Shown here one piece after another: positions 8,877 through 45,271 of a stretch of DNA of 64,000 nt (within the stretch, counting starts at the first letter, position 1; every line of letters begins with the position of its first letter). Source of the DNA: an uncultured Bacilli bacterium (GTDB taxonomy: Bacteria > Bacillota_I > Bacilli_A > RF39 > UBA660); contig CANRNO010000003.1 in the NCBI GenBank assembly GCA_947632065.1, forward strand, positions 6,662 to 70,661, read 5' to 3'. The position numbers and the translations under genes are program-made. The notes beneath the pieces were generated by a model. That model was not told the DNA's origin. It did no database searches and saw only the letters and a list, made by a program, of their open reading frames with translations.

Positions 8877-9581
8877 TTAATTTAATACTTCTTCTGTCAT
8901 TTCTTTTTCTGTAAGTACTATTTTTATAAATTTAACTATATTAAATACTATAATAAGAGCAAGTACTGCCCATATAAAATTTACCCACCAAGGAGTTGCG
9001 GTACAAATTTGTGAAAAAGTATAATGTGCAAAATTATCACAAGATGTAGGCATCTTTATTCTATCTTTAGTTAAATAATAAAAAATAAAATAAATAATTT
9101 CTATATAAAATATTTTCATTCCTCTTTTAGTATGAAATGATACATATTGTGAATCTTTTTTCATTAAATATACATATGGTGCACAAATATATGAAAGTAT
9201 AGCCCATCCTTTATTATTTTCTATTTCTTCTTCTGTAATATTAATTCTATTTTCACTTTTCGATTTAAAAAGAATCTTATTTATATTTTCTATTTTTAAT
9301 TTGTTCTTATTATATCTTTTAGAAAATTTTCTATTTTTAGTTTTCTTAATAGTATCTTTATTTGATGATGAGACACTCATAATAATAGGATCTACTTTTT
9401 CTAATAATTTAGCTTTTTTTATAATATTTTTTTGTGAACTTTTTATCATTACTGATTTATTTTTTTTAGTAGTTTTTCTTTTGTTCTTTTTAGTAGTTTG
9501 TTTATTTTTTACTTTAGCAGTTGTCTTTTTCTTTGTTTTAGCATTAGTTATTTTTTTCTTTTTCTTATTCAACTTCAACAC
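8877..9581 (-). CDS. DUF4870-like membrane protein with a Lys/Thr/Asn-rich basic N-terminal extension
   Basis: N-terminal KKKKITNAKTKKKTTAKVKNKQTTKKNKRKTTKK low-complexity region. The C-terminal TM region contains SQYVSFHTKRGMKIF, resembling the DUF4870 motif. The start codon is uncertain: GTG at 9581, or a TTG a few codons in. Confidence 0.45.
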   Translation of the reverse strand: MLKLNKKKKKITNAKTKKKTTAKVKNKQTTKKNKRKTTKKNKSVMIKSSQKNIIKKAKLLEKVDPIIMSVSSSNKDTIKKTKNRKFSKRYNKNKLKIENINKILFKSKSENRINITEEEIENNKGWAILSYICAPYVYLMKKDSQYVSFHTKRGMKIFYIEIIYFIFYYLTKDRIKMPTSCDNFAHYTFSQICTATPWWVNFIWAVLALIIVFNIVKFIKIVLTEKEMTEEVLN

Positions 9582-11715: not shown

Positions 11716-12525
11716 TTAGTTAAATCTTTTTCTTACTGAATAAGCTATTCCACATCCACTTGTGATAACTAAACTTAGTAATAGATATAAGTTGATATCA
11801 GCAGTATCTGGGTTTGCTTCATCTTTTTTCTCTTCTGTTGTTTGTGGTTCAACTACTTCTGGTTTATGATTTTCATTATAAACTTCCATAGCTGCTTCTT
11901 TGTCTTCTTCAGTAAATGCAGCAGTTGGTGAAACTGTACCAGATAAAGATTCATCAATTACTAATTGAACAGTACTAGCATGAAGTCTAACTATAATTTC
12001 TTGATAATTATCTCCATCCTCTCCATTCCAGTAAATAGTTGCTGTTTTAGTTATAATTGCATTTTCACCATTTTGTTCAATTTCAGCTTTCATTTCTTCA
12101 GCAGTAAATGGAATCCATAAAGTGTAATCATTATGTTGTCCATCGGCTGTTGCTGTAGTACATTCATCTCCGTGATCATTTGTATAGCCTCTTTTCCAAC
12201 AAACTGTACTAACATCAGAATCAGGTGCTTCTACTCCAACACCAAACCAAGCAGTATCTCCTTGTGGTCTGTTAGCATTACCAACTGTTTTATCAACAAC
12301 TACTAAATTAGTGTTTTCGATATCAAATGTTGTTGTCCTTTCATTAGTAGACTTTTTAGCAGCGTTATAATTTTTAGTTGGTCCTGTTGTTGTAATATCA
12401 TTGACGTCTTTTAATTCAAGTGCTGATACTGAAGGCATAACCATAAATGCTGCCATTGCGATTACCGCAATCATCATAATTTTTTTCATATTATCACCTT
12501 TCTTTTTTTGTTGACTTTTCAACAA
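11716..12525 (-). CDS. Secreted cell-surface protein with a C-terminal sorting-signal-like anchor
   Basis: Signal peptide MKKIMMIAVIAMAAFMVMPSVSA (an ATG at 12489 is an alternative to the TTG at 12525). The C-terminus has NPDTAD, then a hydrophobic stretch, then an RKRF tail. Confidence 0.65.
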   Translation of the reverse strand: MLKSQQKKKGDNMKKIMMIAVIAMAAFMVMPSVSALELKDVNDITTTGPTKNYNAAKKSTNERTTTFDIENTNLVVVDKTVGNANRPQGDTAWFGVGVEAPDSDVSTVCWKRGYTNDHGDECTTATADGQHNDYTLWIPFTAEEMKAEIEQNGENAIITKTATIYWNGEDGDNYQEIIVRLHASTVQLVIDESLSGTVSPTAAFTEEDKEAAMEVYNENHKPEVVEPQTTEEKKDEANPDTADINLYLLLSLVITSGCGIAYSVRKRFN

Positions 12526-12546
12526 ATTCTCTCCTTTCTTATCTTT

Positions 12547-12577
12547 ATTATATAATAAGAACCCCCCCCCATGTCAA
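12547..12577 (-). promoter_or_regulatory. Sigma-A type promoter with a G9 homopolymer in the -35/-10 spacer
   Basis: The minus strand reads TTGACA-t-GGGGGGGGG-ttcttattaTATAAT. The -35 is at 12572-12577 and the C9/G9 run is at 12562-12570. TATATA sits at 17-nt spacing and TATAAT at 19-nt spacing, and the surface-protein start lies about 55 nt downstream. Confidence 0.6.
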
Positions 12578-12623
12578 TATTTTTATCAACAGCTGACTAG
12601 GGGTATTTACAATTCATAAAATA

Positions 12624-13916
12624 TTACACTCTCCAGTCAATTAAACTTTCAATCATATCAACATCGAATACTGGAATATCTAATTTTTCTTTTACATCTT
12701 TTCTTTCTCTAAATGAATCATCTATGAAAATAGATTTTTCTTTTTTGATATAATCACTTTTTAATTTATCATCTTCTATGTTAATTATATCTGTGAATAA
12801 ATCAATGGACAATTTATATTTTTTTAAACTATTATAAATATCATCCTTATGTCTTGTTAATAAATATATGTTTTTATTTTTATTTACTAGTTGATATAAA
12901 AATCTTATAGCATCTATATTTAATTTTCCTTTATTAGTAATAGTATCATCAAAATCTATATAAACATTTTCATATTCGTAATCTATTTTATATCTGTTTA
13001 CAAATGCTCTATCTACTATAATACTATAATTATTTTTTATTATATCTAAATTACCATTTCCCCACATGTTATAAAGTGTTAAAAGTGGATAATTAATTCC
13101 TTGATTTCTAGATAATCCCATTGTTCCTGGAATACGTGGAGACACTTCCAAAAGTTTATATTTATTTTGATTATTTTTTTTCAATTGAAAAAACCAGGCT
13201 CCATTAAAATCAAAGTATGAATTTATTATATTAGCAATTTTTGTTACTTCTTTTGGTATTTTATGTTTTGTTGATCTAACACTAATACCAGTTCTTATTC
13301 TATCTCTACTTCTAAATGATATTGACTGTAATTTTTTATTTCTATCTGTAAAACAATCTACTGTGTATTCTTCATTGGCTAAATATTCACAAATAATCAT
13401 ATCTTCATTATTATTAAGTAAAAATTTTAATTCTTCTTCTGTTTCTACTTTATACGAAGCTTCTGCTCCTTGTCCTTTGTTTGGTTTTATAAATACTGGG
13501 TATGATTCTACTTCTTCTATATTTTTAAATGTTTTTGGAATAAAATCTTCACTTTTCATTCTTTCATATGTTTTCTTTTTTGATCTACAAGTATTAACTG
13601 TATCTTTTGATGATGTTACTATTTTTGCTTTTATTTTTTCTTGATTATTGGTTAAGTATACTTGAACTTTATCCATAGCTGGATAAATATAATCTATTTT
13701 ATTTTTTTCAATATATTCATTTAAGTAATCAATAAAATTTTCTTCGTTGAATAATGGAAAATCAATATCACAATTTTTATATATGAATTCACTGTGATCA
13801 CTTGTACTATTTCCTCCAAAAACATTTACAAATTTTGAATATTTTAGAGCATTATTTATCTCAAACGCTATTTCTGATCCTGACGGAAACAATAATACAT
13901 TATATACTTTTTTCAT
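12624..13916 (-). CDS. ATP-grasp ligase fused to a HAD-like C-terminal domain
   Basis: The central region YPVFIKPNKGQGAEASYKV...ICEYLANEEYTVDCF is an ATP-grasp fold. The C-terminus has the HAD motifs IDFDDTIT and FIDDS. 4-nt ATGA overlap with the upstream GT2 gene. Confidence 0.7.
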   Translation of the reverse strand: MKKVYNVLLFPSGSEIAFEINNALKYSKFVNVFGGNSTSDHSEFIYKNCDIDFPLFNEENFIDYLNEYIEKNKIDYIYPAMDKVQVYLTNNQEKIKAKIVTSSKDTVNTCRSKKKTYERMKSEDFIPKTFKNIEEVESYPVFIKPNKGQGAEASYKVETEEELKFLLNNNEDMIICEYLANEEYTVDCFTDRNKKLQSISFRSRDRIRTGISVRSTKHKIPKEVTKIANIINSYFDFNGAWFFQLKKNNQNKYKLLEVSPRIPGTMGLSRNQGINYPLLTLYNMWGNGNLDIIKNNYSIIVDRAFVNRYKIDYEYENVYIDFDDTITNKGKLNIDAIRFLYQLVNKNKNIYLLTRHKDDIYNSLKKYKLSIDLFTDIINIEDDKLKSDYIKKEKSIFIDDSFRERKDVKEKLDIPVFDVDMIESLIDWRV

Positions 13917-37448: not shown

Positions 37449-40400
37449 TTATGAATTTCTTTTTATGCAAATATCTATTTTATGAACTTTTTTATCATTG
37501 ATAAGTGGAATTAAATCATTATTTAAGATATGTCTATCTAAAGTTATTTTTTCTTTATTACCTACTGTTACATCAATCATATATAAAGTATCCATATAAG
37601 TATATTGTATTGAGAACTTATTCCAAGATGATGGTATATGAGGTTTTATTCTAAGCATTTCTCCTGTTTTTTGGAAACCTAATATATCTTTTATACCAAT
37701 ACGATAGAACCATGCAGCTGAACCTGTATACCAAGTCCATCCTCCACGTGATGGAAAGTCTTTTGATGAATAAATATCAGCGGCAATTACATAAGGTTCT
37801 ACTTTATATCTTAATATATCTGTTTTAGTTTTACTTCTTTCTATTGGATTAATCATTTGGAAAATGGAATATGCTAAATCGTATTTTCCTGTTTTGATAA
37901 GAGCCATTATATACCAAGATACTGAATGAGTATATTGTCCTCCATTTTCACGTATTCCTTTAGGATAGTTTTTGATATATCCTGGATTATTTAATGATTT
38001 ATCAAATGGTGGTGTTAAAAGTTTTACTATTTTTAAATCTTTATCTACTAAATATTTATCTACAGCATTTAAAACTTTTTCTTGTTTTTCTTTTGGGACA
38101 ACTTCACTTAATATAGAAAAACTTTGTGAAATTAAATCTATTTTACATTCTTCATTTAGTTTACTTCCAAGTTTATCTCCATTATCGAAATATGCTCTTA
38201 AATAATATTCTTTATCCCATCCGTTTTTATTAAGGCTCTCTTTTAATTTTTTATTAAATTCTAAATACTCTTTAGTTTTAAATCTTGGTTTGTATTCTTT
38301 TATCATTTTAGTAAAACGATTAATAATATCATATAAGAAGAATCCTAACCAAACACTTTCTCCCTTTCCTTTAATACCTACTTTATTCATTCCATCATTC
38401 CAGTCTCCTCCACCCATTAAAGGAAGACCATTGCGACCTATATTATCAATAGCAAGATCGATTGACTTTTGTAAATGAGTAAGTAGTGTATCTTTTTCTT
38501 CACTATAAGTGAAAGTAACTCCTTTTTCTTGTTCGTGTGGACGAAGAGTTTCTGCGACTGCATATGGTACTTTTTCATCTAATATAGAATTATCTCTTGT
38601 TACATCTATATATTCAATTGTTGCATATACTAACCAAAGATAATCATCTTTATAACGACTACGAAGTCCAAATGTATTATGTTCGTGCCACCAATGAAGA
38701 ACATCTCCTTCTTTGAATTGATGGGATGCATTTATTAGAATTTGTTTTCTTGTAAAGTCTGGTTTTATTGTAACAATATTCATTGAATCTTGTAATTGAT
38801 CACGATATCCATAAGCACCACTTACTTGGTAAAATCCTGATCGTGCTAAAATTCTTGCGGATAATGCTTGATATAAATACCAACCATTCATCATATAATT
38901 GAAACTAATATCAGGAGTTTTTACTACTATTGTACCTAAGTCTTTTTTCCATTTATTTTTAACTGATTTTAATTCTTTTGTTGCAGTATTTATATCTTGA
39001 TATTTATGAAGTAAATCTAAATTTTCTTTATCACTTCTACCACTACCTAAACTAAATACAATAGTTTTTTCTTCTTCTTTATTTAAAGTAATATTATTAG
39101 TAATAGATTTTATTAAAACTTGATTATCAACAACTGATGTTATTTTTTCACTTGATGTCATAAATACTGATACATCATTAAAATTAGCATGATAAACATT
39201 TCTCATTTTTAAGTAATTATCTTTGCCCATAAACTCAGTTAAGATATATCTAGTAGTTTTTTCTTCTAACACTCCAAATGTTGGATTTATAAAGAATTCT
39301 AACTGTACTGATTGTTTTATCTTTTTCTTGTTTTTTAATTTTAAAATATATAATTTTACAGTATCATCTAAGGCAACAAATTCAGTTAAGCTTTTATCTA
39401 AATCATCATTAGTAGATTCTAAAATACTATATCCAAATCCATGAATACATCTAGTTGGATTAAATATTTTTCCATTTATTCTTATTCCTTCACTTCTATC
39501 ATTTACAACCATTTCATTAGACCAAGAAGTTATTTTAAACTCTCCACTATTATATCCATAAGTAAATCCACAGCCATTGTTAGTAATTATAGTACCAAAA
39601 TTTTTATTTGCGATTACATTACTCCATGGAGTTGGAGTTTGTGGATTTGTGATAACGTATTCACTACCTTTGCTTCTAAAGCCTCCAAATTCATTATTAC
39701 ATGTAAGTTTTATATTATCTTCAAATTCATTATTATCTTCTAGAAGTATTTCTTCTTTGGTACTAACTTTATTTTTCATACTCATTTCTTCTACTTTTTC
39801 TTGTAGTGTTTTATGATCACTTACATCAAAAGTTAGTCTTGGAACCATTTCTAGAAGTATTTTTTCTTCTTCTGTTAAATCTTCTTCACTTATAAGATTT
39901 ACTGAACCTGGTGTATGATAGAAACTATTCAATGTATAAATTCTATAAAGTTCATCATCTACTTCTTTTTTAATTATTTTAGCATATTGTTTATTTTCAG
40001 CATTTATAATAATTATATCTACAAATATTGAATTGTTTTTATAATATTCAAAACATTTTAAAATATCCATTATAAATGAAATATCACTTATATCAGGAAC
40101 TTTTACTAGGATAATTGGTCTATCTCCAGATATTCCAAACTTCCAAAGTGCAGTTTGAGATAAAGCATTTTTTCTTAAAATTTCTTTTCTTTCTTCATTA
40201 ACATTATATTTTGTTGTTTGATATAAGTAGTTTAACATCATATTATAAACTCTCATATCTTCACCTGTTAATCTCATATTTTTAGTATTTATAATATTTG
40301 ATACAGATGATATTTCAAACGCTTTATCAATAGTTCTTTTATTATGATATGTATTAATTATTTCATCTAATTGTTCCATACTTCTTCCAAATCCGTTAAT

Positions 40401-43400
40401 AAAGTATACTACTTCACTACTGTTTGGAAGTACTTCTATTGTATTTCTTAGTGACATTATTGGTTCGATATTATCTCCTACATGGTTGGTTAATTCTTCG
40501 TGAAGAGCTTTTGGATTTGCGGCAGTATTACCTCTTCCAATAAAGTTAAATCTATCTGTCTCATAAGTGTAGACACTTTTTGGATTTTCTATTAATAGTC
40601 TTTCTACTATATAACTACTAATATTACTATCACGTGAAGTTCTTCTCATTATTAAAGTATTATTATCCCTATTGTAAGTTGAATGTAGGAACATGTTGTT
40701 GAATACTTTATGAGATATATCATCTAAGTTTTCACAGATTATTGGTTCTGTATAAGTTGTAAGTTCTAAATGTTTTGTTTCTTCACTTTCATTTTTAAAT
40801 GTTATCTTTCTAATTTCTGCATGATGATTATGAGTAACTATTATTTCTGTTGTAGTTATAATACCATTATCTTTTCTTATATATTTTATCTTATCACTTG
40901 CGAATATTACTTCATATTTTTCTGGTTTAATGTTTATTGGTGCATAAGTATTAGACCAAACATAATCAGTATCTATATCTTTTATGTATAAAAACATTCC
41001 ATAATCTTGTTCTGATATTTTTCTATATCTATTTAGTTGTTGAGTTCTATATCTTGAAAAACCAGTACCTCTATCATTTATAAGTAGGCAATATTTTTTA
41101 TTAGAGATACTTGCGAACTCTGGTGTTTCTGATATATAGTTAAATACTCTAATATCATTTTCAATACGTTCTTTATCATAATTATATTTTTTATATTTAG
41201 CCATTTTCATATCTATATTAGTTTTTACTTGAACTTTTTCTTTTAATAATAGTTCGAATGTTTTTACTGAAATATCTCTATGAAAATATCCTTTTATTTT
41301 TCCTTCTGTTAGATAGTTTGCAAACGATAAAAGACACATTCCTTGATGATGAGCAAAGTATGCTTTTACTATTCCTTTATTATCATAGTCATATGATTCA
41401 TAAAAACCATATTTATCATACATATTAAGTTTTCTAAATTTCTTTATATTGTGATAAACATCTTTTGGGAATAATTCAAGTGCCATAATTGATGAATATG
41501 GAGATATAACAATTCTGGCATCACTTTCTTCTTTAGCTTTTAAGTATGGAGTTGAGAAGCTTTTATATTTGTAGTTTAAGGCATTATCAAGTTCATTATA
41601 TGCACTTTCACTAATTCCCCAAGGAAGTTTTTTTGAAACACTTTCCATATAATCTACTTGGCACATATGGGCAAAATGATATGTCTCATCTAATAGGGTG
41701 TTTTTATAATTTTTCATAAATAGAAATGGCATAAAATATTCAAATGATGTTCCAGACCAAGAGATAAGTCCTTTTCTATTTTTATAAGTTGTAAGTGATT
41801 TATCAAGTGAAAGCCAATGTTTACTTGGTACATCTCCTTTACATATCGCAACAAAACTAGTTAGACGAGATTCACTTGCGAATTTATTGTAATTATAAAT
41901 TGATAAATGTCCTTCTGCTTCATCGTATCCAATTGAAAATACATTTTTCTTTGTATATAGTTTTTTAAAATTAGTATTTTTAATCATAGTCTCTACTTTT
42001 TTTCTTAATTTAAAGTGAACTCCAATATCATCTACTTTTTCTAAAAAGTTTTTAACTATTATTAAGCATGCTACAAAGTTTCCTGAATCTATTGTTGATA
42101 TAAATCTTGGATTCATAGCTTTTTTGGTTTTTATGTCATACCAGTTATATAAATGTCCATGCCATTTTTCTAAATGAGAGACTGTTTTTATAACATTTTT
42201 AATCAATTCTATTGCTTCATCTAAACTAATAAAGTCTAATTCGTATGCTGAGATAATACTAGTAAGTGAATAACCTATATTAGTAGGAGAAGTTCTTAAA
42301 TCTAATTTCTCTTCTCTATTTTCTTGGAAATTATCTGGCATTAAATATCCATATTCTTCTTTCATAGAATCTTTAAAAAACATCCAAGTCCTGTAGGCCA
42401 TTTTCTTTATGTTATCATTGTCTGTATCACTAAGTGGTGTTAAATCTTCTTTTATATCTTTACTTACGTTATATAAAACAAATGGACTTGATACAAAGAT
42501 AATTCCTACTAGTAGTGGTATAACACTAATGTAGTATGCTCCATATCCTATTAAGATTAATCCTAATAATATATTAAATATAAAATCTTTTATATAACTT
42601 GTTATATCTGTTTTAGCATTTCTTTCTGCCTCTTCCATAGAAAGCCAATTAAGAAGATTTTTATGACTTATAAACATTCTATAAATACTACGACAAAAAG
42701 CATCTAAGTATAATTTTGCATAATATGGAATAGTTGAAAATACTATATAAGTTCTAAGAAATAGTGCTTTTCCTCCAAACATTAAATTTTTATAATATAG
42801 TGTTAAGAAATTAGTTTTCTTTTTATATAGTTTTTCTCTTAGGAAGAATAATACTCCTAATGCTATATCAAATAAGACAAATAATAAGTAAACATATGGA
42901 GGCATTTTTCCTATAAAAAATCCTAGTAATAATATTAATAATAAAGCAGGCATTAAAAACATACGAGCTATATTATCAAATATTTTATATCTACCTAATA
43001 AGTTTATAGGATTCTTTTCATTTTTATTTTTATGATTTTTAACATTAAAATTTAGCCAACTTAATATTTGGACATCTCCTCTAGCCCAACGATGTTGACG
43101 TGTTACATCTGTTAAAAATTTAGGTGGAAAACCATCAATTAATTCTATATCTGAGGCATAACCACATCTTAAATAATTACCTTCTAATAAATCATGACTT
43201 AATATTAAATTATCTGGAAAACGATTATATAAAACTTCATCAAATGTTTTTAGATCATATATTCCTTTTCCAATAAAACTTCCTTCATTAAAAGAGTCTT
43301 GATAAACATGAGGTATTATTGCAGTATAAGTATCAAATCCTCCAATACCTGCGAATACTTGAGCATAAACTGATGAGTTAGTGGATTCTATATCAACACT

Positions 43401-45125
43401 TACTCTAGGTTGTAGTAATCCATATCCATACTCTACTTTATTTTTTTCTTTATTTAACACTGGTCTATTTAATGGATGATCCATAGCACCTACTAGTAGA
43501 AGTGCAGTATTTAATACTAATTCAGTATCTGTATCTAGAGTTATAACATATTTTATTTCTTGTTTTATTTTATCAATTGTTTGAGCATAGAAGAATTTTT
43601 CTTTGTCTTTATCAGTCATCTTTCCAAGAAGTAAATGACTAAAATGAAGGAGTGCTCCACGTTTTCTTTCCCATCCTAAATATGTATCTTCACTTTTTGA
43701 AAAGAATCTTTTTCTATAAGCAAAATGAAATATTTCTTTTCCGTATTTCTCATTTAATTCATGTGAATATTTTAATCCTGCTTCTTTTATTTCTTCATCT
43801 ATATCTACATATTTTTTTGATTTACTAGTAGCATCTGCAAGAAGTGAAAAGTAAATATTATTGCTTTTATTAACTAAGTAATATGTTTCAAGTTTTGAAA
43901 ACATTTCTTTAACTTTTGTTGCATCTCCTACTAATGTAGTTATAACAACCATAGTAGCTGCATCTTCAGGAAGTCCTTTTGAATAATCCATTTTACATAG
44001 AGGTTTTGGTTCAACAAAAGTTGTTAGTAAATGGTTTATTATTTGAATTATTAATTGGCTTACTGGAATTATTAATATTATAAATCCTAATATTTTATTT
44101 TCTATAAAGTAATTTGTAAAGAATAATGTAATTAAAATAGAAGATATTAAAATAGTTAATATGTATATACTTACTCTAAAGGTATTTTTTTTAGGTTTAA
44201 ATAAAAGTGTTCCAATATGGTAATTATCACTATTTGAAGTTCTAAACAAATCTTCTATATAATCTATTTCATTTATGTGTTTATGTCTTGCATCTTTAAT
44301 TATTTTTTTACGGTATAAACTTCTTGTTTCTGGTGTCATTTTAGTATATATTTTATCTCCAAGTAATTTTTTCTCACAGTTATTAGCACCTTTTAATAAT
44401 TCTTCTATTGAATAGTTTTCATAAAAATCTTTTAAATTATTAAATATATTAGAAATGATTATATTAGAATCTATTCTTCTTTGATATTCATCGTTTAATA
44501 TTTCTCTAATACTAATATTTTGTTTTTGTAATAGAATATTTAACTCTCTAAAAGCTTGATTACTTTTAGCACCAAATTCTTTTAATTGATTATTAATTTC
44601 AAATATATAATTAGTACGATTATTAATGCTATTATTAATGTCTAGAAAGTCTTTAATATTTATTTTTTCATCTTTGTCTATTCCTTCAAGCAACTTTTCT
44701 ACTTTCTTTTTATCTTGTAATCTTTGATATTCTAATTTGTATACTTTATTTAATTTTTCTGTATATATAAACAAAAGGACTAAAGGTATTACATCAAATT
44801 CATTATAACTTAAATAAGTCTTAGTTTCTTTTTGATACTTATTTAATTCTTTTACTAAATTGGAAATATTTATATTGTAATTATATCTACTAACTATATC
44901 ATGAATTAAATAGTAAACGTTTTCATTTTTATATAATCTTTTACTATTTTCTTTTTTTTCAAGAATGATTATATTTTTATGTTCAACAATTAAATAATAA
45001 TTATCTATTAACCATTCATTTGCGATACCGACATATTCATGATTTTTTGTTAAATCAACAAGATAATTATAGTATTCTGTAATCTCATCAAAATTTTCCA
45101 TAAATCTTTTTATAAATTTGTCCAT
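37449..45125 (-). CDS. Cyclic beta-1,2-glucan synthase-like giant protein (membrane GT84-like glycosyltransferase plus GH94 phosphorylase-like domains)
   Basis: ATG at 45125 follows an AAAGGTGA RBS. TM helices, WERKRGALL, ITLDTDTEL (DxD), QHRWARGD (QxxRW), more TM helices, and a C-terminal GGGDWNDGMN motif of the GH94 type. Confidence 0.8.
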   Translation of the reverse strand: MDKFIKRFMENFDEITEYYNYLVDLTKNHEYVGIANEWLIDNYYLIVEHKNIIILEKKENSKRLYKNENVYYLIHDIVSRYNYNINISNLVKELNKYQKETKTYLSYNEFDVIPLVLLFIYTEKLNKVYKLEYQRLQDKKKVEKLLEGIDKDEKINIKDFLDINNSINNRTNYIFEINNQLKEFGAKSNQAFRELNILLQKQNISIREILNDEYQRRIDSNIIISNIFNNLKDFYENYSIEELLKGANNCEKKLLGDKIYTKMTPETRSLYRKKIIKDARHKHINEIDYIEDLFRTSNSDNYHIGTLLFKPKKNTFRVSIYILTILISSILITLFFTNYFIENKILGFIILIIPVSQLIIQIINHLLTTFVEPKPLCKMDYSKGLPEDAATMVVITTLVGDATKVKEMFSKLETYYLVNKSNNIYFSLLADATSKSKKYVDIDEEIKEAGLKYSHELNEKYGKEIFHFAYRKRFFSKSEDTYLGWERKRGALLHFSHLLLGKMTDKDKEKFFYAQTIDKIKQEIKYVITLDTDTELVLNTALLLVGAMDHPLNRPVLNKEKNKVEYGYGLLQPRVSVDIESTNSSVYAQVFAGIGGFDTYTAIIPHVYQDSFNEGSFIGKGIYDLKTFDEVLYNRFPDNLILSHDLLEGNYLRCGYASDIELIDGFPPKFLTDVTRQHRWARGDVQILSWLNFNVKNHKNKNEKNPINLLGRYKIFDNIARMFLMPALLLILLLGFFIGKMPPYVYLLFVLFDIALGVLFFLREKLYKKKTNFLTLYYKNLMFGGKALFLRTYIVFSTIPYYAKLYLDAFCRSIYRMFISHKNLLNWLSMEEAERNAKTDITSYIKDFIFNILLGLILIGYGAYYISVIPLLVGIIFVSSPFVLYNVSKDIKEDLTPLSDTDNDNIKKMAYRTWMFFKDSMKEEYGYLMPDNFQENREEKLDLRTSPTNIGYSLTSIISAYELDFISLDEAIELIKNVIKTVSHLEKWHGHLYNWYDIKTKKAMNPRFISTIDSGNFVACLIIVKNFLEKVDDIGVHFKLRKKVETMIKNTNFKKLYTKKNVFSIGYDEAEGHLSIYNYNKFASESRLTSFVAICKGDVPSKHWLSLDKSLTTYKNRKGLISWSGTSFEYFMPFLFMKNYKNTLLDETYHFAHMCQVDYMESVSKKLPWGISESAYNELDNALNYKYKSFSTPYLKAKEESDARIVISPYSSIMALELFPKDVYHNIKKFRKLNMYDKYGFYESYDYDNKGIVKAYFAHHQGMCLLSFANYLTEGKIKGYFHRDISVKTFELLLKEKVQVKTNIDMKMAKYKKYNYDKERIENDIRVFNYISETPEFASISNKKYCLLINDRGTGFSRYRTQQLNRYRKISEQDYGMFLYIKDIDTDYVWSNTYAPINIKPEKYEVIFASDKIKYIRKDNGIITTTEIIVTHNHHAEIRKITFKNESEETKHLELTTYTEPIICENLDDISHKVFNNMFLHSTYNRDNNTLIMRRTSRDSNISSYIVERLLIENPKSVYTYETDRFNFIGRGNTAANPKALHEELTNHVGDNIEPIMSLRNTIEVLPNSSEVVYFINGFGRSMEQLDEIINTYHNKRTIDKAFEISSVSNIINTKNMRLTGEDMRVYNMMLNYLYQTTKYNVNEERKEILRKNALSQTALWKFGISGDRPIILVKVPDISDISFIMDILKCFEYYKNNSIFVDIIIINAENKQYAKIIKKEVDDELYRIYTLNSFYHTPGSVNLISEEDLTEEEKILLEMVPRLTFDVSDHKTLQEKVEEMSMKNKVSTKEEILLEDNNEFEDNIKLTCNNEFGGFRSKGSEYVITNPQTPTPWSNVIANKNFGTIITNNGCGFTYGYNSGEFKITSWSNEMVVNDRSEGIRINGKIFNPTRCIHGFGYSILESTNDDLDKSLTEFVALDDTVKLYILKLKNKKKIKQSVQLEFFINPTFGVLEEKTTRYILTEFMGKDNYLKMRNVYHANFNDVSVFMTSSEKITSVVDNQVLIKSITNNITLNKEEEKTIVFSLGSGRSDKENLDLLHKYQDINTATKELKSVKNKWKKDLGTIVVKTPDISFNYMMNGWYLYQALSARILARSGFYQVSGAYGYRDQLQDSMNIVTIKPDFTRKQILINASHQFKEGDVLHWWHEHNTFGLRSRYKDDYLWLVYATIEYIDVTRDNSILDEKVPYAVAETLRPHEQEKGVTFTYSEEKDTLLTHLQKSIDLAIDNIGRNGLPLMGGGDWNDGMNKVGIKGKGESVWLGFFLYDIINRFTKMIKEYKPRFKTKEYLEFNKKLKESLNKNGWDKEYYLRAYFDNGDKLGSKLNEECKIDLISQSFSILSEVVPKEKQEKVLNAVDKYLVDKDLKIVKLLTPPFDKSLNNPGYIKNYPKGIRENGGQYTHSVSWYIMALIKTGKYDLAYSIFQMINPIERSKTKTDILRYKVEPYVIAADIYSSKDFPSRGGWTWYTGSAAWFYRIGIKDILGFQKTGEMLRIKPHIPSSWNKFSIQYTYMDTLYMIDVTVGNKEKITLDRHILNNDLIPLINDKKVHKIDICIKRNS

Positions 45126-45271
45126 CTGTATCACCTTTTACAATATAGGAATATATTGTTCCTTCCATTTTTATTATAACACGAAAATCATATTTTTAAA
45201 TGTAAAAAAGATGCATTCCTTGTTCTTAAGTATGTCATCTTTTTATTTCTTAATATTTAATATTAAATTTT

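Follow-up and report, generated by a model that had tools for sequence, protein, structure and literature searches.

A poly-G tract in the promoter spacer of a predicted wall-protein gene from an uncultured gut Bacilli bacterium: a candidate slipped-strand switch

In the 64-kb stretch of DNA analysed here (called the window below), a run of nine G lies between the -35 and -10 hexamers upstream of a gene for a putative surface protein. The same kind of run occupies the same position between conserved hexamers in relatives, and sequences that are otherwise identical differ in its length alone. We consider it likely (with a probability of roughly 0.8, as judged from comparing genomes) that the tract is a hypermutable slipped-strand contingency repeat in the sigma-A-type promoter of this gene. 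A first-pass annotation had put forward a phase-variation switch of this type as a candidate, and the proposal is supported by the length polymorphism of the tract together with its conserved position between TTGAC and TATAAT while the flanks diverge. The features of a contingency locus found at the site are a G/C run that is long enough (about 8 or more), its placement between two hexamers, recognised at motif level, and length differences among near-identical genomes. Moreover, the product, with its signal peptide, its NPxT[AS] tail and the class B sortase neighbours of its homologues in relatives, belongs to the class of proteins usually placed under such switches.

Layout of the tract and of the promoter around it

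The tract is C9 on the forward strand, that is, G9 on the coding (minus) strand, and is the only G/C run longer than 5 nt in the window, the runners-up being three runs of 5 nt. Since about 0.0015 C9 runs per window are expected from composition (25.3% GC), it is far beyond chance. The minus strand reads ATAAAAATA-TTGACA-T-GGGGGGGGG-TTCTTATTA-TATAAT-AAAGATAAGAA-AGGAG-AGAAT-TTG, and the full spacer between TTGACA and TATAAT is TGGGGGGGGGTTCTTATTA (positions are collected in Table 1). On re-reading, all coordinates and counts given in the first-pass annotation (the nine C, the two hexamers, and spacings of 17 and 19 nt) proved right, as did its remark that this was the longest G/C run noticed.

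Table 1. Positions in the window of the surface-protein gene and of the elements of its promoter cassette
Feature	Position	Strand	Remarks
A-rich stretch ATAAAAATA, abutting the -35 on its upstream side	12578..12586	-	AAAAA(T/A)AT part kept in all cassette copies (8-copy alignment)
-35 hexamer TTGACA	12572..12577	-	TTGAC unchanged in every cassette copy; tract-less homologues have TTGAC[TC] here
Poly-G tract, G9, variable element within the promoter spacer	12562..12570	-	G6 to G11 in orthologous and paralogous copies
Fixed spacer part TTCTTATTA, 9 nt	12553..12561	-	T..TTAT.. at the same register in relatives; 9 nt in every type-1 cassette
TATATA, overlapping TATAAT	12549..12554	-	17 nt from TTGACA
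-10 hexamer TATAAT	12547..12552	-	at G9, separated from the -35 by 19 nt; identical in every cassette copy
Ribosome-binding site AGGAG	12531..12535	-	belongs to the conserved promoter-RBS cassette
Gene for a secreted surface protein, 269 aa	11716..12525	-	ORF; starts TTG 12525, or TTG 12522, ATG 12489
Signal peptide MKKIMMIAVIAMAAFMVMPSVSA	12421..12489	-	
C-terminal sorting signal (class B sortase type): NPDTA, 22 hydrophobic/uncharged residues, RKRFN	11719..11814	-	sequence and conserved tail

The annotation had also offered TATATA as a -10 hexamer, and this part stands only as regards the spacing. The motif is not conserved (relatives have TTGTAT) and lacks the T at position 6, so that the conserved -10 is TATAAT and the G9 allele of the window, with its 19-nt spacer, is predicted to be probably low or off. 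In this species only, TATATA might provide some activity at G9, at most weak. A consensus promoter scan, which accepted spacers of 16 to 18 nt and required a T at position 6 of the -10, did not call the window site in its G9 state. The same scan calls the orthologous G6 copy (spacer 16, 11/12 matches) and one G9 copy with an 18-nt spacer (11/12 matches). The A-rich stretch next to the -35 may play an UP-element-like role.

Pairing of CCCC (12605-12602) with the G run into a terminator-like hairpin was considered and rejected: the C run is missing in relatives, and no terminator was called. No RNA family was found at the tract site with Rfam, whose sole match in the window is a tRNA-Ala.

The surface protein and its gene neighbourhood

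The protein has the features of a class B sortase substrate, namely an N-terminal signal peptide, an NPxTx motif, a hydrophobic segment and a positively charged tail. The signal peptide is of the signal-peptidase-I type, with a cleavage site between VSA and LE, no Cys within or after it and no lipobox. The NPxT[AS] tail is kept in at least 20 proteins of related MAGs. Although no sortase motif was found within the 64-kb window, class B sortase genes adjoin several homologues in relatives, scoring 161 to 165 bits against a TIGR03064 cut-off of 153.75. The wall-sorting-like C-terminus named in the first-pass annotation is supported by the tail and by these sortase neighbours, and the protein is probably anchored to the wall by a class B sortase, as its sequence features suggest.

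The protein matches no Pfam family and is a member of a small family of 6 proteins. An AF2 model (mean pLDDT 65, about 80 in the core) has a beta-sandwich core, and we therefore predict a beta-sandwich for the central domain. When the model was compared with the PDB by Foldseek, no match was obtained at E ≤ 0.001, and only generic Ig-like and RhoGDI-like sandwiches were seen.

The same strand carries, upstream of the gene, a glycan-type operon encoding LicD, a DegT-type aminotransferase, a GT2 glycosyltransferase and an ATP-grasp enzyme. In one same-strain contig (L013 258-261, sample ERZ27249309, corresponding to about 13150-13190 of the window) the ATP-grasp gene carries a 40-nt deletion with 4-nt microhomology, which splits it into ORFs of 109 and 165 aa; either a genuine knock-out or a mistake of the assembly could account for this. 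Genetic code 11 applies to the window, which is otherwise ordinary chromosome of a PolC-bearing Bacilli bacterium (Lon, ClpB, HtpG, ThrRS, ComEC). Two further ORFs, both on the minus strand, are worth recording. The first, of 2,561 aa (37449-45134), combines glucoamylase-like, GH94 supersandwich and GH94 catalytic domains; it looks like a cyclic beta-1,2-glucan synthase or phosphorylase, a giant protein that is unusual in a small low-GC Bacilli genome. The second, of 234 aa (8877-9581), is extremely rich in Lys over its N-terminal half, has a membrane segment at the C-terminus and matches no family.

Tract length and cassette conservation among relatives

The first-pass annotation had proposed comparing tract length among related strains or MAGs, and this comparison found that lengths differ. 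Four assemblies of the same strain read G9, G9, G10 and G10, and the tract is the sole polymorphic site over the 3.9 to 4.4 kb aligned. Aligned to the window, ERZ27249097 (L001; 3,877 nt, 0 mismatches) has G9, while ERZ27249088 (L002; 3,877 nt) and ERZ27249309 (L013; 4,439 nt) both have G10, each with 0 mismatches and one 1-nt gap, at the tract; these G9 and G10 calls come from contigs at only 3.6 to 4x coverage and, taken alone, could be homopolymer miscalls. A larger difference was found in a related species, for a gene (P0004) whose protein is 50% identical to that of the window. The tract is G11 in the NCBI MAG CANRPP01 ('uncultured Bacilli bacterium, Lapin-018 bin36'; L006) and G6 in a Logan contig from DRR849120 (L007), and these two sequences show 0 mismatches in 2,046 aligned nt, the single 5-nt gap being the tract. 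A gap of 5 nt is too large for a homopolymer read error. At 99.66% identity, L034 has G9 and L035 has G10 or more. Two other pairs showed no length difference, all four tracts being G10 (L004 and L015; L031 and L032).

Low-coverage contigs were also seen to break exactly inside tracts: L008 and L035 start in one, and L033 runs from one tract to the next. This suggests either mixed lengths in the sample or a drop of coverage in G runs.

The tract is part of a conserved block, which we call the type-1 cassette: AAAAA(T/A)ATTGACn, 0-1 nt, Gn, 9 nt (T..TTAT..), TATAAT, and then the ribosome-binding site. This layout is found upstream of orthologues at 67% (L004 and L015, G10) and 50% protein identity, and it precedes at least 10 paralogous genes in related 'uncultured Bacilli' MAGs. 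These include six genes on two contigs of bin36 (L014, L016 and L028, twice each), two genes of a second MAG, GCA_947632685.1 (L029 with G6, L030 with G9), and two genes on L034. Beyond the -35 on its upstream side, the DNA of the different cassette copies cannot be aligned. The related MAGs are taken to come from rabbit gut from their names alone ('Lapin'); they carry 10 or more type-1 and 3 type-2 cassettes (the latter described below), while the window has a single copy. In the 38.9 kb of bin36 that were examined, all nine G/C runs of at least 6 nt fall within spacers of this kind, and each reads as G on the strand that codes for the gene downstream.

More distant homologues (L009-11, L017 and L018) have no tract. 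At the same place they have TTGAC[TC], followed after exactly 17 nt by TAnnnT, as read in three of them (L009, L017 and L018), which at motif level identifies the hexamers as those of the promoter and 17 nt as its native spacing.

The paralogues share a signal peptide and a tail of the form E[AN]NP[ND]T[SA]DINLYLLLSLIAVSGCGIAYT.K.RFN, and between these lie central domains of unrelated kinds (beta-helix, PF13229; Ig-like; a 386-aa repeat domain). This modular surface-protein family (L014, L016, L028, L029, L030, L034), in which each gene is preceded by its own poly-G promoter cassette, was retrieved from the protein database with a full-length paralogue as query. A second arrangement, the type-2 cassette, was observed three times (L016 478-486; L028 140-149 and 6497-6505; MAG GCA_947632545.1). 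It reads TTATTGACA-N9-G9/10-TA(G/T)A(A/T)T, so that the G run abuts the -10 and the spacer is 9 + n = 18-19 nt. It drives another paralogous family of 297 to 323 aa, in which the N-terminus MKKIVKKHYKFIIGLIIGIIISTTV...SDVSYNTGTSHGSKNNIQGAIDELY is kept and the remainder is Cys-rich and variable. Finally, upstream of the orthologue P0003 (69% identical), an IS110-family transposase gene is present (L005 91-1386) and there is no cassette.

Proposed switch, competing readings and counterparts in other bacteria

Slipped-strand mispairing at replication would add or remove G residues. Because every type-1 cassette consists of TTGACn, 0-1 nt, Gn, 9 nt and TATAAT, each slip would shift the -35/-10 spacing by one base, the spacer being n + 10 in the window and n + 9 or n + 10 in relatives. 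RNA polymerase requires about 17 nt (range 16 to 18): in the window, G7 would be optimal, G6 (16 nt) and G8 (18 nt) would be active too, and G9 to G11 (19 to 21 nt) would be weak or silent. The gene would in this way be switched or tuned, stochastically and heritably, in a subpopulation of cells. Use of the promoter, dependence of expression on tract length, and the rate and reversibility of switching are the parts of this scheme that we infer. Among about 19 observations of type-1 cassettes, spacers of 16 nt were seen twice, 18 nt once, 19 nt eight times, 20 nt six or more times and 21 nt once; none had the 17-nt spacer of the predicted fully-on allele. Consensus assemblies apparently capture mostly the presumed-off alleles.

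Four other explanations are considered. The first takes the tract to be inherited passively, as a piece of a promoter cassette that was duplicated; its length differences would reflect neutral slippage or assembly noise, and the gene would be expressed mainly by read-through from the upstream glycan operon, or by a promoter in which this -35 has no part. Such a view would accommodate the low coverage behind the G9 and G10 calls and the missing 17-nt allele. Furthermore, no terminator was called in the window between the stop codon of the ATP-grasp gene (12624) and the cassette, and read-through from the glycan operon could give switch-independent expression there. In relatives, however, the cassette is preceded by a terminator or by unrelated genes, and there it must be the gene's own promoter. 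Nor does noise explain G6 versus G11 in otherwise identical DNA. An unselected run of G9 to G11 would decay at 25% GC, yet it has been kept across 50% protein divergence and in at least 13 cassette copies, within invariant TTGAC and TATAAT motifs that tract-less homologues use at 17 nt. We therefore regard the passive reading as unlikely.

Alternatively, the 19- to 20-nt spacer may be the working state of an activator-dependent promoter, served by MerR-like DNA twisting or by a protein binding the G run, so that the gene would be regulated rather than switched stochastically. Spacings of 19 to 20 nt are typical of MerR-type promoters, and most copies have one or the other. However, the spacer TGGGGGGGGGTTCTTATTA lacks dyad symmetry and offers the G run no C run to pair with, inverted repeats across it are absent, and neither the window nor the relatives have a regulator gene linked to the cassette. 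Tract lengths from 6 to 11 would, moreover, be incompatible with a fixed operator, and we consider this scenario very improbable.

A sequencing or assembly artefact, such as the poly-G artefact of two-colour Illumina chemistry, might explain why contigs frequently break at tracts; it has next to no credibility, since unique sequence brackets the tract on both sides in four independent assemblies of the locus, which refutes the assembly artefact that the first-pass annotation had named as fatal to its reading, and since tracts occur at the homologous position in other species and projects (ENA, NCBI MAGs, Logan). Inversion of the promoter (an inverton) in place of slippage is equally implausible, given that no inverted repeats flank the promoter (only AT-rich matches of 10 to 27 nt exist elsewhere) and no recombinase gene is nearby.

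Returning to slippage within the promoter spacer, the mechanism is established for porA, opc, hifA/B and vlp (PMC3899988, PMC10502178). The first-pass annotation had likewise named spacer repeats as known switches of surface antigens in Neisseria, Haemophilus and the vlp genes of Mycoplasma. In Neisseria meningitidis, a poly-G tract (porA) or poly-C tract (opc) lies between -35 and -10, and gain or loss of one base alters the transcript level (PMC3899988). The window resembles these loci in having a G homopolymer between the -35 and -10 of a surface-protein promoter. PorA and Opc, however, belong to the outer membrane of a Gram-negative pathogen, and each of their genes has one tract, outside any common cassette. 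The window comes from a low-GC gut Bacilli bacterium, the wall protein it encodes is of the sortase type, and relatives repeat the cassette before many genes. The TA repeat of Haemophilus influenzae hifA/hifB, which sets the -35/-10 distance and hence fimbrial expression (PMC3899988, PMC9187656), is a dinucleotide repeat in a bidirectional promoter, unlike the tract of the window.

The vlp genes of Mycoplasma hyorhinis form a surface multigene family with a homopolymer in each promoter and independent on/off switching (PMC10502178, PMC3899988). A similar logic is found in the related MAGs, with 10 or more cassettes and one homopolymer promoter per gene; because relatives carry such a multigene family, the present system is the most vlp-like in its working. 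Citti and Wise are said to have described in 1995 a poly-A tract between -35 and -10 of vlp, with 17 A as the on state. The Vlp proteins are lipoproteins of a wall-less organism with poly-A tracts, whereas here the tract is poly-G at 25% GC, the product lacks a lipobox and ends in an NPxT[AS] tail, and a single copy is visible in the window. The protein is therefore not a member of the Vlp family, being no lipoprotein and coming from an organism that has a cell wall.

Among gut commensals, the nearest example is Bifidobacterium breve, in which G10-G11 tracts control sortase-dependent surface structures and length heterogeneity was seen by deep sequencing; the authors mention further G-tracts in promoter spacers (PMC9187656). 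The pilus tracts characterised there are intragenic frameshift switches, in a high-GC actinobacterium. Campylobacter genomes, which are low in GC, each carry many G/C homopolymers acting as contingency loci, some of them intergenic (PMC8355987, PMC6321876), but the tracts of this phasome are mostly intragenic and share no promoter cassette.

A broader proposal, to which we would give even odds, is that the A-rich stretch, TTGAC, Gn, TATAAT, ribosome-binding site, 5' signal-peptide region and 3' class B sortase tail form a portable expression module, present once in the window, that brackets interchangeable central domains (beta-helix, Ig-like and others) in this lineage of cell-walled, low-GC gut Bacilli, and which together with the type-2 Cys-rich family would make up a promoter-based poly-G 'phasome'. 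If so, it would correspond to the mycoplasma Vlp system, with anchoring in the wall, and would provide combinatorial surface variation in a commensal, most copies being off at 19 to 20 nt and few cells expressing each.

Homopolymer switches in promoter spacers are textbook matter in a handful of pathogens (Neisseria, Haemophilus, Mycoplasma) and are hardly documented for Gram-positive gut commensals; our literature searches turned up neither poly-G spacer promoters described for sortase B substrates nor any account of this lineage. At the level of comparative sequence, the locus of this uncultured gut Bacilli bacterium appears to behave as such a switch. The mechanism itself is known, and what is added here is unusually clean comparative evidence, together with the reuse of the cassette across a modular wall-protein family. 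In practice, polishing should not be allowed to erase tract length at such sites; the length would be readable straight from metagenomic reads as a population-level expression state, and gene-presence profiles of these organisms would overstate the surface proteins actually made.

A metagenome scan for TTGAC-N1-2-G6+-...TTATYRTATAAT returned 9 matches, none of which came from the species of the window or its close relatives, and it shows no more than that G tracts occur in spacers elsewhere too. Among unrelated low-GC metagenome contigs, two loci related to each other carry G7 and G8 (spacers of 16 and 17 nt; L021 600-627 and L027 12196-12224, respectively) before homologous secreted proteins, and another (L026 10866-10893) reads TTGACAT-G9-TTATTA-TATAAT. 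The poly-G spacer device may be widespread in low-GC gut bacteria.
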